From positions 7,068,001-7,132,000 of the forward strand of contig CM068753.1 in NCBI GenBank assembly GCA_035084275.1: a stretch of 64,000 bases of DNA. Reading direction: 5' to 3'. Source of the DNA: Hydrolagus colliei (Eukaryota). The notes beneath the pieces were generated by a model that was given only the letters and a program-made list of their open reading frames with translations, made no database searches and was not told the origin of the DNA. Both the position numbers and the translations under genes were made by a program. Positions 38,301-59,375 of the stretch are shown piece by piece (within the stretch, counting starts at the first letter, position 1; each line of letters opens with the position of its first letter).

Positions 38301-39036
38301 CAATGAGAGGTTTGCAGCCAAGCTGTGGGTTGGGATCAGAGAGAGGTGGAGAGCAATGTGGGTGGACAGGTGACCTTAGGCATAGTCAAAGAGGAAGGTC
38401 TTGAGCCAAGCTATGAGGGAGACAAGGGAGGGGGTGAGACGGAGGGAATGTGGGATGGGATTCTAGAGGTTCAAGCTAGACTGGGGTCAGTGTCTACTCT
38501 GGTAACTGAGGCCAACTTTTTGAGAACTGTTGAGTGCTGGATGATATTAATAATAATAAACCTTGCGATTGATATAGACATTTCAAAGCATTTAACAGAA
38601 TTTATTGTAAAGTGGATTGACTGTATTTTGTGGGCAAAGCTCAATATCTAATTACATATAGCAGTGTCCCACAAACAGATGTGGATTGAGCGGCCATGTA
38701 TTTTTGTTTTTTTTGGAGTGATTATTACTCCCAGAAAGCAATCCGCCAATCGACTAACAATTGGGTTCCTTGGAACATCCTCCTGATGTGAAAGGCGCTG
38801 TATAAATGTAATTTTGTTGTTGTTGTCTAATGTTTTGTCCCGCATGGAAATCAAATTGGGTCCTCTCGCTTGCAAGGGCAAGCTCGCTAACCACTGCACA
38901 ACAGGACTCCATAATCTGTCTTGTTTTACAGATCATCACGGCTCTGGAGGAGGATCCCATGGCCCAGAAGATGCAGCTGGGTTACCGACTGCAGCAGATT
39001 GCGGCCTCTGTGGAAAACAAAGTCACCGACTTGTGA
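4206..39036 (+). CDS. PLXNB1: Plexin-B1 (semaphorin-4 receptor), complete spliced CDS, 35 coding exons, ~2174 aa
   Basis: Exons joined at GT(GC)-AG sites with consistent phases sum to 6525 nt, ATG 4206 to TGA 39036. B1-type segments recognised: [41 protein letters not shown], the Pro/Thr insert with [75 protein letters not shown]. Closer to B1 than B2/B3 as I recall those sequences. Confidence 0.93.
6059..6377 (-). mobile_element. SINE family A copy
   Basis: Reverse-complement match including the tRNA-like head. Confidence 0.75.
6770..6952 (+). CDS. PLXNB1: PLXNB1 coding exon 2 (Sema)
   Basis: cacag/GACACG..AAG/gtcagc; 183 nt; [21 protein letters not shown]. Confidence 0.92.
7716..7945 (+). 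CDS. PLXNB1: PLXNB1 coding exon 3 (Sema end + PSI1)
   Basis: gtcag/GTTTAC..GGCAG/gtcagt; 230 nt; [24 protein letters not shown] motif. Confidence 0.92.
8816..9203 (+). mobile_element. tRNA-derived SINE (family A) with (ATT)n L2-type tail
   Basis: A-box-like TAGCTCAGTGG and B-box-like GGTTCTATTCC, conserved body (gggcaagtttccttactccacac..), tail gcgctatatcaaatgcaaggattattatt. Many copies in the window. Confidence 0.8.
9229..9361 (+). CDS. PLXNB1: PLXNB1 coding exon 4
   Basis: cacag/GTGC..AAG/gtgaga; 133 nt; [20 protein letters not shown]. Confidence 0.9.
10096..10252 (+). CDS. PLXNB1: PLXNB1 coding exon 5
   Basis: cctag/GTGTTC..GCAG/gtattt; 157 nt; [21 protein letters not shown]. Confidence 0.9.
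10920..11028 (+). CDS. PLXNB1: PLXNB1 coding exon 6
   Basis: tttgaag/ATCACG..TTCCC/gtgagt; 109 nt; [17 protein letters not shown]. Confidence 0.88.
11045..11450 (-). mobile_element. CR1-type LINE 3' fragment
   Basis: Minus frame [21 protein letters not shown]. Related fragments at 20165-20775 (+, split by a SINE), 53190-53640 (-) and ~100-480 (-). Confidence 0.7.
11592..11898 (-). mobile_element. SINE family A copy
   Basis: Reverse-complement match. Confidence 0.75.
11948..12183. mobile_element. MITE, Tc1/mariner (pogo/Tigger-like) superfamily
   Basis: Perfect 19-bp TIR CAGTAAAAGCCCGTTTATC / GATAAACGGGCTTTTACTG (extends to ~26 bp with 2 mismatches); TA target duplications at 11946-47 and 12184-85. 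Confidence 0.85.
12469..12577 (+). CDS. PLXNB1: PLXNB1 coding exon 7 (PSI2)
   Basis: ctacag/GTGC..AAC/gtaagt; 109 nt; [22 protein letters not shown]. Confidence 0.92.
14007..14804 (+). CDS. PLXNB1: PLXNB1 coding exon 8: Thr/Pro-rich mucin-like insert (alternative in-frame acceptor gives start 13980)
   Basis: Lies in the long ORF 13911-14990; phase-0 acceptors at 13979 and 14006; donor CAA/gtaagt at 14804; ends in [18 protein letters not shown]. Confidence 0.8.
14822..15166 (+). mobile_element. SINE family A copy starting 17 nt after the exon-8 donor
   Basis: ggagtccggtagtatagtggttagagcacttgcc head, full body and tail. Confidence 0.78.
15946..16300 (-). mobile_element. SINE family A copy
   Basis: Reverse-complement match. 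Confidence 0.78.
16811..16939 (+). CDS. PLXNB1: PLXNB1 coding exon 9
   Basis: gtacag/GGGGAC..CAT/gtaagg; 129 nt; [28 protein letters not shown]. Confidence 0.88.
16961..17230. repeat. Compound (CA)n microsatellite
   Basis: Seen directly. Other simple repeats: (TAA)n 3288-3324, (CT)n 18193-18221 and 24541-24595, (TG)n 27550-27620 and 61661-61690, (GGGT)n 34605-34636 and 39575-39610. Confidence 0.9.
17368..17490 (+). CDS. PLXNB1: PLXNB1 coding exon 10
   Basis: ccccag/GAG..CAG/gtgagg; 123 nt; [18 protein letters not shown]. Confidence 0.9.
17525..17760 (+). repeat. Unclassified dispersed repeat (second copy ~36812-37040)
   Basis: Shared acaacactaccctctc..aaagctctt..gtctgacaca..gaaacccatcac..aaactgagaattcc..atagattg.tggaa. 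Confidence 0.65.
18224..18320 (+). CDS. PLXNB1: PLXNB1 coding exon 11
   Basis: (ct)n tag/TACATG..CACA/gtgagt; 97 nt; [15 protein letters not shown]. Confidence 0.87.
19139..19305 (+). CDS. PLXNB1: PLXNB1 coding exon 12 (PSI3)
   Basis: cctcag/TTACAC..TCG/gtgagt; 167 nt; [26 protein letters not shown]. Confidence 0.92.
19409..19560 (+). CDS. PLXNB1: PLXNB1 coding exon 13 (IPT/TIG)
   Basis: ccccag/ATCGAG..CCAG/gtcagc; 152 nt; [14 protein letters not shown]. Confidence 0.92.
19983..20088 (+). CDS. PLXNB1: PLXNB1 coding exon 14
   Basis: gtacag/GATTGT..CAG/gtcagc; 106 nt; [12 protein letters not shown]. Confidence 0.9.
20165..20775 (+). mobile_element. CR1-type LINE 3' end interrupted by a SINE fragment
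   Basis: [30 protein letters not shown]; tail ggaacaggctggaggggctgaatagcct..gttcctat. Confidence 0.7.
20816..20952 (+). CDS. PLXNB1: PLXNB1 coding exon 15 (IPT)
   Basis: cgtag/GACCCG..CTCAT/gtgagt; 137 nt; [22 protein letters not shown]. Confidence 0.92.
21293..21469 (+). CDS. PLXNB1: PLXNB1 coding exon 16
   Basis: ggcag/CTCTGC..CTCGG/gtgaga; 177 nt; [19 protein letters not shown]. Confidence 0.88.
22013..22181 (+). CDS. PLXNB1: PLXNB1 coding exon 17 (IPT with proprotein-convertase sites)
   Basis: tttcag/TGGCGG..ACG/gtgagt; 169 nt; [22 protein letters not shown], then RERRRR and RTRTRR. Confidence 0.9.
23001..23243 (+). CDS. PLXNB1: PLXNB1 coding exon 18
   Basis: ttgcag/TTCTAC..GAG/gtactg; 243 nt, phase 0-0; [25 protein letters not shown]. 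Confidence 0.92.
23626..23843 (-). repeat. Inverted duplicate of 22143-22350 (3' end of PLXNB1 exon 17, its donor and adjacent intron)
   Basis: Reverse complement reads cggagactgatcactgaggaagggccgagcccactgacggtgagtgggtcacacaggctgcag..., about 8 differences in the first ~97 nt by eye versus 22143 onward. Similarity continues into the shared SINE head. Confidence 0.9.
24047..24223 (+). CDS. PLXNB1: PLXNB1 coding exon 19
   Basis: tttcag/GGGGAA..ATT/gtacgt; 177 nt; [29 protein letters not shown]. Confidence 0.9.
24618..24766 (+). CDS. PLXNB1: PLXNB1 coding exon 20 (transmembrane helix)
   Basis: cccag/GTGCAG..TACAG/gtgagg; 149 nt; [21 protein letters not shown]. Confidence 0.93.
25209..25309 (+). 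CDS. PLXNB1: PLXNB1 coding exon 21 (juxtamembrane; GC donor)
   Basis: gacag/GCGCAAG..ACAG/gcaagt; 101 nt; [33 protein letters not shown]. Confidence 0.9.
25826..26043 (+). CDS. PLXNB1: PLXNB1 coding exon 22 (GAP)
   Basis: gtcag/ACCTG..AAG/gtacag; 218 nt; [18 protein letters not shown]. Confidence 0.93.
26431..26609 (+). CDS. PLXNB1: PLXNB1 coding exon 23 (GAP, first arginine motif)
   Basis: gtcag/TTTATC..CGCAG/gtaatg; 179 nt; [14 protein letters not shown]. Confidence 0.93.
27172..27238 (+). CDS. PLXNB1: PLXNB1 coding exon 24
   Basis: attcag/GACAG..AGG/gtgggt; 67 nt; [22 protein letters not shown]. Confidence 0.92.
27937..28266 (+). mobile_element. SINE family A copy
   Basis: Head, body and tail match. 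Confidence 0.72.
29011..29157 (+). CDS. PLXNB1: PLXNB1 coding exon 25
   Basis: ccccag/GACTCT..CTG/gtatct; 147 nt; [29 protein letters not shown]. Confidence 0.93.
29235..29356. repeat. 27-bp minisatellite, ~4.5 copies (tctcagtcccctcctcctcccccccac)
   Basis: Direct tandem units just after exon 25. Confidence 0.9.
30267..30426 (+). CDS. PLXNB1: PLXNB1 coding exon 26 (Rho-GTPase-binding domain)
   Basis: catag/TCATTG..CTCG/gtaagg; 160 nt; [23 protein letters not shown]. Confidence 0.9.
31085..31188 (+). CDS. PLXNB1: PLXNB1 coding exon 27 (RBD)
   Basis: attag/AATGG..AAG/gtgggc; 104 nt; [25 protein letters not shown]. Confidence 0.92.
31906..32252 (+). mobile_element. SINE family A copy
   Basis: TAGCTCAGTGGTTAGG A box, GGTTCGATTCC B box, ATT tail. 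Confidence 0.8.
32606..32690 (+). CDS. PLXNB1: PLXNB1 coding exon 28
   Basis: ctgcag/GTTGCT..GAGA/gtgagt; 85 nt; [10 protein letters not shown]. Confidence 0.92.
32926..33092 (+). CDS. PLXNB1: PLXNB1 coding exon 29
   Basis: ccccag/AGACCC..AAG/gtgaga; 167 nt; [21 protein letters not shown]. Confidence 0.93.
33723..33883 (+). CDS. PLXNB1: PLXNB1 coding exon 30
   Basis: cacag/GGAACG..AACAG/gtaaca; 161 nt; [18 protein letters not shown]. Confidence 0.93.
35043..35190 (+). CDS. PLXNB1: PLXNB1 coding exon 31 (GAP, second arginine motif)
   Basis: cacag/TCTGCC..AGG/gtgagt; 148 nt; [14 protein letters not shown]. Confidence 0.93.
35765..36121 (+). mobile_element. DeuSINE-like element (family B)
   Basis: tRNA-like head (gcctctgagtcagaaggttgtgggttcaagccccac) and Deu-domain-like core (gatgagatgttaaac..gttgaagatccca..gcac..ctggtg..gcaacaatccc), with the same tail as family A. 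Other copies at ~2848-3000, 13435-13620, 18700-18990, 31260-31540, 35230-35670, 47490-47830, 48050-48290, 52725-53030, 54165-54437. Confidence 0.7.
36173..36237 (+). CDS. PLXNB1: PLXNB1 coding exon 32
   Basis: gtcag/GATTCA..GAGAG/gtgagt; 65 nt; [17 protein letters not shown]. Confidence 0.93.
36499..36574 (+). CDS. PLXNB1: PLXNB1 coding exon 33
   Basis: gtaag/GTACTA..AGG/gtaagt; 76 nt; [25 protein letters not shown]. Confidence 0.92.
37545..37619 (+). CDS. PLXNB1: PLXNB1 coding exon 34
   Basis: ttacag/AACTAC..CAG/gtatgg; 75 nt; [15 protein letters not shown]. Confidence 0.93.
38548..38910 (-). mobile_element. SINE family A copy interrupted at ~38770-38830 by a + strand (TTG)n-tail fragment
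   Basis: Reverse-complement SINE with a nested tail insertion. Confidence 0.7.
38932..39036 (+). CDS. PLXNB1: PLXNB1 coding exon 35 (C-terminal PDZ-binding motif VTDL, stop)
   Basis: ttacag/[49 protein letters not shown]. Confidence 0.94.

Positions 39037-59375: not shown

Follow-up and report, generated by a model that had tools for sequence, protein, structure and literature searches.

The window analyzed here is a stretch of 64,000 nucleotides from Hydrolagus colliei (contig CM068753.1 of assembly GCA_035084275.1, forward-strand positions 7,068,001 to 7,132,000), and it contains a plexin gene (coding region 4206-39036, + strand) followed on the same strand by a gene for an SR-protein kinase (SRPK) of 12 exons (47257-59375), the ATG of which at 47257 lies 8221 bases past the plexin stop. 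The 8.2 kb interval between the two (39037-47256) holds no further coding gene in the open-reading-frame listings, and positions 39000-64000 give no Rfam match. The closest named relatives are those of Callorhinchus milii, with 89-92% identity, as fits a holocephalan. Based on the gene neighborhood, the phylogeny of the kinase domain and published synteny tables, we propose that the kinase is the cartilaginous-fish form of SRPK3L, a fourth SRPK paralogue that lies 3' of PLXNB1, is distinct from SRPK3 and has lost its spacer exons.

The plexin coding region is complete, running from the sema exon (4206-5327) to a last exon that ends in ENKVTDL and a stop codon, and residues 1-1908 of C. milii plexin-B1 map along it in 34 pieces, all in order (tblastn). 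The sema exon is 90% identical to that of C. milii plexin-B1, and among the best 120 of its 1148 homologues 115 are named plexin-B1 (from sharks, rays, birds, turtles, and fishes) and five are unnamed. The names B2 and B3 do not occur among these 120, and plexin-B3 was rejected as an identity for this gene on that ground. The best PDB match is also to plexin-B1 (3.4e-106). Judged on the names of its homologues, which place it nearer to B1 than to B2 or B3, the plexin is PLXNB1. A Pro/Thr-rich open frame (16% P, 15% T; 13902-14987), of a kind that we take to be a B1-specific plexin feature, interrupts the match between C. milii residues ~681 and ~682. It appears to form an extra exon at 13902-14804, with a donor at 14805 and a 5' edge that is not fixed, defined by its open frame and composition and skipped in the C. 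milii record. Plexin-B1 records of 1908-1916 residues from chimaera, sharks, birds, and turtles lack this large exon (records of ≤2000 residues were searched), and for that reason it is likely to be alternatively spliced. The preliminary description of this DNA had reported an SRPK gene directly 3' of, and co-oriented with, a plexin carrying B1-type residues and a Pro/Thr insert, and each of these statements holds.

The kinase gene begins with exon 1 (47257-47303), which carries the start codon and matches C. milii residues 1-16, and exon 2 (49075-49186), which encodes an N-terminal tail, contains a run of 12 G and is discussed below. An ATG at 47245, upstream of the exon 1 start, is altered in sequencing runs X6 and X12. 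The ten kinase exons, 3 to 12 (49555-59375), join, with intact splice sites, into an uninterrupted reading frame of 366 codons and a stop. Exons 3-5 (49555-49663, 49772-49859, and 50427-50514) encode the Gly-rich loop, the catalytic Lys, and the Glu of helix C; exons 6 and 7 (52585-52691 and 53781-53934) the HTDIKPEN catalytic loop and the first spacer helix; exons 8-10 (54506-54606, 55470-55577, and 56861-56930) the DLG motif, the activation segment, and the start of the docking groove; and exons 11 and 12 (58902-58994 and 59191-59375) the remainder, exon 11 being present in a single copy and exon 12 ending in the stop codon. At 92% identity, the last exon matches a C. milii protein that carries the name ‘SRSF protein kinase 3’. 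Every intron of the gene is GT-AG save that at 50515-52584, which has AT and AG ends, the donor ATATCCTT, and a branch-point-like CCTTTAAC, and which we class as U12-type by the consensus that we take to define such introns. The RefSeq models of C. milii and Scyliorhinus torazame gain or lose residues at the junction of this AT-AG intron. A retrocopy origin of the kinase was rejected, as the introns are retained.

The kinase belongs to the SRPK family (CMGC group): its nearest relatives are SRPKs, the SRPK-type DLG replaces DFG, and the Gly-rich loop, catalytic Lys, helix C Glu, and the HxDxKxxN motif are all intact. Three of the four docking-groove residues are identical to those of SRPK1 (D564, E571, and K615 retained; D548 replaced by E), in a numbering for which we assumed an SRPK1 length of 655 residues and in which all five test positions landed on the expected residue. 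These four positions of the acidic docking groove of SRPK1 are as given in PMC8102418. What the kinase lacks is the long spacer typical of metazoan SRPK1-3, together with the Lys-rich stretch that opens it, while the flanking helices are predicted to remain. The linker between the two kinase halves measures 47 residues, and the intron at the spacer position of SRPK1/2/3 (53935-54505, 571 bases) shows no spacer-like coding sequence in tblastn searches with five full-length SRPKs. It should be noted that the spacer is also skipped in some database models of SRPK1/2/3, such as a 446-residue C. milii SRPK2, whereas in the window the exons are missing from the DNA itself. A predicted model of the C. 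milii orthologue (predicted local distance difference test score, pLDDT, 73.5; predicted template modelling score, pTM, 0.78; residues 1-58 of low confidence) has SRPK2 and SRPK1 structures as its best matches, with template modelling (TM) scores of 0.89-0.90 by target. The spacer-deleted SRPK1 and SRPK2 crystal constructs (PDB 1WAK, 2X7G, and 7ZKS) align with it end to end in one stretch, and the SRPK2 construct has a linker of similar size (52 residues); however, those proteins are engineered and derive from other paralogues, whereas here a natural gene is without spacer exons in its DNA.

The same kinase occurs across chimaera, sharks, and rays, in 22 named species that were gathered by a profile of eight short proteins together with cluster look-ups. 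Over 332 columns its kinase identity is 89% to C. milii and 68-71% to sharks and rays, and 40 of 41 records of the chondrichthyan clade have a linker of 47-48 residues (one was not measurable) versus 151-430 residues in 13 other natural SRPKs. Open frames in all 22 species led us to reject pseudogene status for the clade as a whole. The RefSeq proteins are labeled SRPK3, SRPK3-like, or SRPK2-like (‘SRSF protein kinase 3 / 3-like / 2-like’, e.g., C. milii XP_042195627); they are direct orthologues with the short linker in common, but the SRPK3 and SRPK2-like names conceal a separate paralogue. Further natural short, spacer-poor SRPK-like proteins occur among invertebrate-like records (P0485 and P0294), and spacer loss likely happened more than once, since P0485 groups with arthropod SRPKs, outside the shark clade. 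The link to the plexin also seems to extend beyond H. colliei: in 13 of the 13 chondrichthyan species with both values, the contig with the kinase and the contig with plexin-B1 are equal in size, which indicates the same chromosome only. In the bamboo shark the kinase, chiPu_0008583, is two locus tags from Chipu0008585, which PMC10972751 (file 6) assigns to the alpha1 copy together with plxnb1 of gar and frog. In the same work (OG_4291), the chicken gene ENSGALG00000006526, which is Lamb's PLXNB1, is named PLXNB3 yet is grouped with plxnb1.

Phylogenetic analysis of the kinase domain separates this gene from SRPK3. A first tree (44 rows, no outgroup, and no gar W5N879, with a double-domain centipede protein and a mis-joined yak model left out) had no bony-fish member of the short clade and could not distinguish between a shark SRPK3 and a fourth paralogue. 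The main tree (36 rows over 332 columns, LG+C20, rooted on six invertebrates, after 17 near-duplicates were dropped and 9 rows added) includes the spotted gar protein W5N879, found in a representative search, which of six references matches the shark kinase best and which falls in a 65-member chordate cluster of the ESM Atlas. Gar also has a regular SRPK3 (XP_069040142), distinct from W5N879. In this tree the window kinase, eight chondrichthyan proteins, and W5N879 form a clade with support of 100/99, which becomes 100/100 when six long-branch controls are added, and SRPK3 from human, lungfish, gar, and bichir forms a separate clade (98/99) with the window kinase outside it. Approximately unbiased (AU) tests reject both a tree that joins the short kinases to SRPK3 and leaves W5N879 outside (p=0.00055) and a grouping of SRPK3 with W5N879 (p=0.006). 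Among 31 clade-diagnostic columns W5N879 has the clade residue at 11, and six invertebrate SRPKs have it at 1-2. The stem of the short clade (0.25-0.28) is four to six times as long as those of SRPK1, 2, and 3 (0.045-0.067). Support for a pairing of SRPK1 and SRPK2 is weak (92/79). Records of these two paralogues, among them shark SRPK2 (P0284, P0269, P0273, and P0276), contain the counterpart of exon 11 in two tandem versions, and SRPK3 records and the window gene contain a single one, which fits the pairing of SRPK1 with SRPK2. Human SRPK3 (MSSK1) and ray-finned srpk3 resemble the window gene in lying 3' of a plexin-B, in their single exon 11, and in 60-64% kinase-domain identity, but they form a separate clade, stand beside PLXNB3, and have spacers of 151-260 residues.

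An alternative is that the kinase is in fact the SRPK3 of cartilaginous fishes, which evolves fast and reached the PLXNB1 locus by relocation or gene conversion, with the gar protein joining it by long-branch attraction. The RefSeq name ‘SRSF protein kinase 3’ in several species and the ray-finned srpk3 proteins that are the next-best matches of the last exon would agree with this, but the AU test (p=0.00055) does not, and the grouping with W5N879 withstands the long-branch controls and rests on the 11 shared specific residues. The two homologue lists (best 120 of 374 and best 120 of 5706) contain shark SRPK2, and neither a long-spacer shark SRPK3 nor a shark SRPK1 was found in them; the first of these absences would suit the alternative, but it means little because shark SRPK1 is absent there too. 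Likewise in its favor, the PLXNB3 (beta1) group of PMC10972751 (file 6) has no bamboo shark row among the rows listed, whereas SRPK3 and SRPK3L are both tabulated for gar, Xenopus, and zebra finch (see below). Chicken, too, is without a row among those listed for that group. We consider this alternative very unlikely. Chondrichthyans may have lost SRPK3.

A fourth SRPK gene beside PLXNB1 is already on record in bony vertebrates. Lamb & Hunt 2018 (PMC6170504, Suppl. Table S1) list a quartet of SRPK2, SRPK1, SRPK3, and SRPK3L one row above PLXNB2/PLXNB3/PLXNB1, with SRPK3L on gar LG5 at 44.4 Mb and on chicken 12, and absent in human. In Lamb 2021 (PMC8040251, Table S1B), SRPK3L and PLXNB1 lie at 44.46 and 44.35 Mb on gar LG5, 128.59 and 128.64 Mb on Xenopus 4, 9.08 and 9.10 Mb on zebra finch 12, and 11.75 and 11.68 Mb on chicken 12, distances of 17-110 kb across the four species, and the SRPK3L entry is blank in reedfish, opossum, and human. 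The identifiers given in the two tables are ENSLOCG00000013656 (gar), ENSXETG00000024935 (Xenopus), ENSTGUG00000008493 (zebra finch), and ENSGALG00000006544 (chicken). SRPK3 and SRPK3L both have entries for gar, Xenopus, and zebra finch, the zebra finch SRPK3 on an unplaced scaffold, and the chicken SRPK3 entry is blank (PMC8040251). The quartet pairing used there is ((A,B),(C,D)), and the two tables place a PLXNB-SRPK pair on two sister chromosomes of the second-round (2R) genome duplication, PLXNB3-SRPK3 and PLXNB1-SRPK3L. The tabulated SRPK3L thus resembles the window gene as the fourth member of the SRPK quartet, adjoining PLXNB1 and blank in opossum and human; the tables, however, cover bony vertebrates only and give no sequence features, so that the cartilaginous-fish copy and the missing spacer are not in them. 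A term search of the main texts of both papers gave no mention of SRPK, and a literature search of open-licence papers found no study of an SRPK3L gene, the name ‘SRPK3L’ returning one false match only and ‘SRPK4’, among the matches listed, papers that are by title on plants or unrelated. Hence the evolutionary claim of a fourth SRPK beside PLXNB1, already tabulated as SRPK3L, is not new; new here are the chondrichthyan orthologue, its mislabeling as SRPK3 in RefSeq, and the missing spacer. The preliminary description had further proposed that the kinase is divergent and separate from SRPK3, an ohnolog lost in mammals that would probably be auto-annotated as SRPK3-like, and the phylogeny, the published tables, and the RefSeq names, respectively, bear this out.

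We therefore put forward, with a probability of roughly 0.87, the interpretation that the window gene is the cartilaginous-fish SRPK3L, located 3' of PLXNB1, distinct from SRPK3, devoid of spacer exons, and likely to encode an active SR-protein kinase that would escape spacer-based control; the identity of the kinase as SRPK3L is by itself very probable. In the hypothetical history that we propose, an ancestral PLXNB-SRPK pair would have been copied in the second genome duplication, and the copy on the PLXNB1 side would have evolved faster and lost its spacer, no later than in the ancestor of the cartilaginous fishes. The SRPK3L protein would bind RS-domain substrates via the docking groove and then phosphorylate them. 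Its location would no longer be set by the spacer and would most simply be nuclear, without chaperone anchoring, and control of the kinase may have moved to where the gene is expressed. Removal of the spacer from SRPK1 barely changed its activity, but the kinase went to the nucleus and SR proteins aggregated in speckles (PMC3628584). The regulation of this chondrichthyan SRPK3L would likely differ from that of the human SRPKs, given that the long regulatory spacer is lacking, and its predicted nuclear location has, in our estimate, about even odds.

Several points weigh against this interpretation. The same-contig sign is weak for any one species, as in Scyliorhinus canicula the contig with SRPK2 also has the size of the contig with the short kinase, and the RefSeq numbers of plexin and kinase are ≤20 apart in only four of eight species. 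W5N879 sits on a long branch (0.54), and of the 31 diagnostic columns 11 show in it the residue common to other SRPKs and 9 yet another residue. It also contains a linker of 261 residues that resembles intron read-through; with a linker of this length in gar, only cartilaginous fishes may have lost the spacer. Accession spacing (1232 proteins over 1002 gene ids between the compared records, set against a protein to gene-id ratio that we assume to be about 1.2) fits W5N879 being the product of ENSLOCG00000013656, and it is from this spacing only that we infer W5N879 to be Lamb's gar gene. In the main tree the short clade, SRPK3, and lamprey meet in an open fork (91/81) in which a sister relation to SRPK3 is not resolved, and the AU test does not separate SRPK3 (p=0.43) from SRPK1+SRPK2 (p=0.35) as the sister of the short clade. 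The SRPK3 sister relation accordingly rests on synteny. With respect to location, deletion of the spacer did not relocate SRPK2 (PMC3628584), and the absence of the Lys-rich stretch makes the prediction for the window kinase less certain as well. The exon 2 frame, taken up below, belongs with these points.

A further reading is that the gene does not go back to a genome duplication but to a small-scale copying of SRPK1 or SRPK2 at a later time, by which it came to lie next to PLXNB1 in the ancestor of jawed vertebrates; the AU test does not reject a clade with SRPK1+SRPK2 (p=0.35). However, the position of the kinase mirrors PLXNB3-SRPK3 on the 2R sister chromosome, in gar and reedfish a distance of about 0.5 Mb separates SRPK2 from PLXNB2 (PMC8040251), the retained introns exclude a retrocopy, and the gene has one exon 11 where the SRPK1 and SRPK2 records have the exon duplicated. 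This origin is in our view highly improbable.

Exon 2 in the window allele has 112 bases, a length that breaks the frame from exon 1 to exon 3, so that a splice like that of C. milii leads to a stop after 46 codons. This might be taken to mean that the gene is SRPK3L but is decaying in this individual or species, the exon 2 frameshift being a null allele; sequencing run X1 is identical to the window at exon 2, and the branch of the window kinase (0.095) has double the length of the C. milii one (0.046). Nevertheless, run X4 of the same organism has seven more bases at exon 2, which restore the frame, and even in the window allele an acceptor five bases downstream, at 49080, or an ATG late in exon 2 opens a frame into the kinase. 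The frameshift touches only the tail ahead of the kinase domain, where the sequence shifts frame relative to C. milii, while the ten kinase exons all keep the frame and have intact splice sites, and the two exon 3 differences of organism B, among the differences listed, are both synonymous. We regard decay of the gene as unlikely. Run X6 carries a 4-base insertion at the exon 2 acceptor.

Very high-copy interspersed repeats lie in the introns of the SRPK3L gene at 47450-47920, 49320-49556, and 50025-50375 (summed contig depth 1e5 to 1e7), and a broken reverse transcriptase fragment of the long interspersed nuclear element (LINE) type lies 3' of the gene at 61693-62354 (Pfam RVT_1, E 6e-7). Frames near 2982 and 55797 that resemble a LINE-type reverse transcriptase fragment gave no Pfam match.

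A wider scenario, which we hold tentatively and think rather doubtful, is that sharks, rays, and chimaeras kept only the PLXNB1-SRPK3L pair and lost PLXNB3-SRPK3, the opposite of mammals. Every chondrichthyan ‘srpk3’ would then be a hidden paralogue, and these animals would have carried for >400 million years an SR kinase that naturally lacks the spacer, resides constitutively in the nucleus and escapes chaperone control, as a wild counterpart of the engineered spacer-deleted SRPK1. SRPKs are usually taught as three genes, and the only record of the fourth, which mammals have lost, is a row in supplementary tables. Databases call SRPK3L by the name SRPK3, and comparative work on shark or bird ‘srpk3’ can thus mix two paralogues. 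With the spacer gone and the catalytic core and docking groove kept, the chondrichthyan SRPK3L is a natural test of the role of the SRPK spacer.

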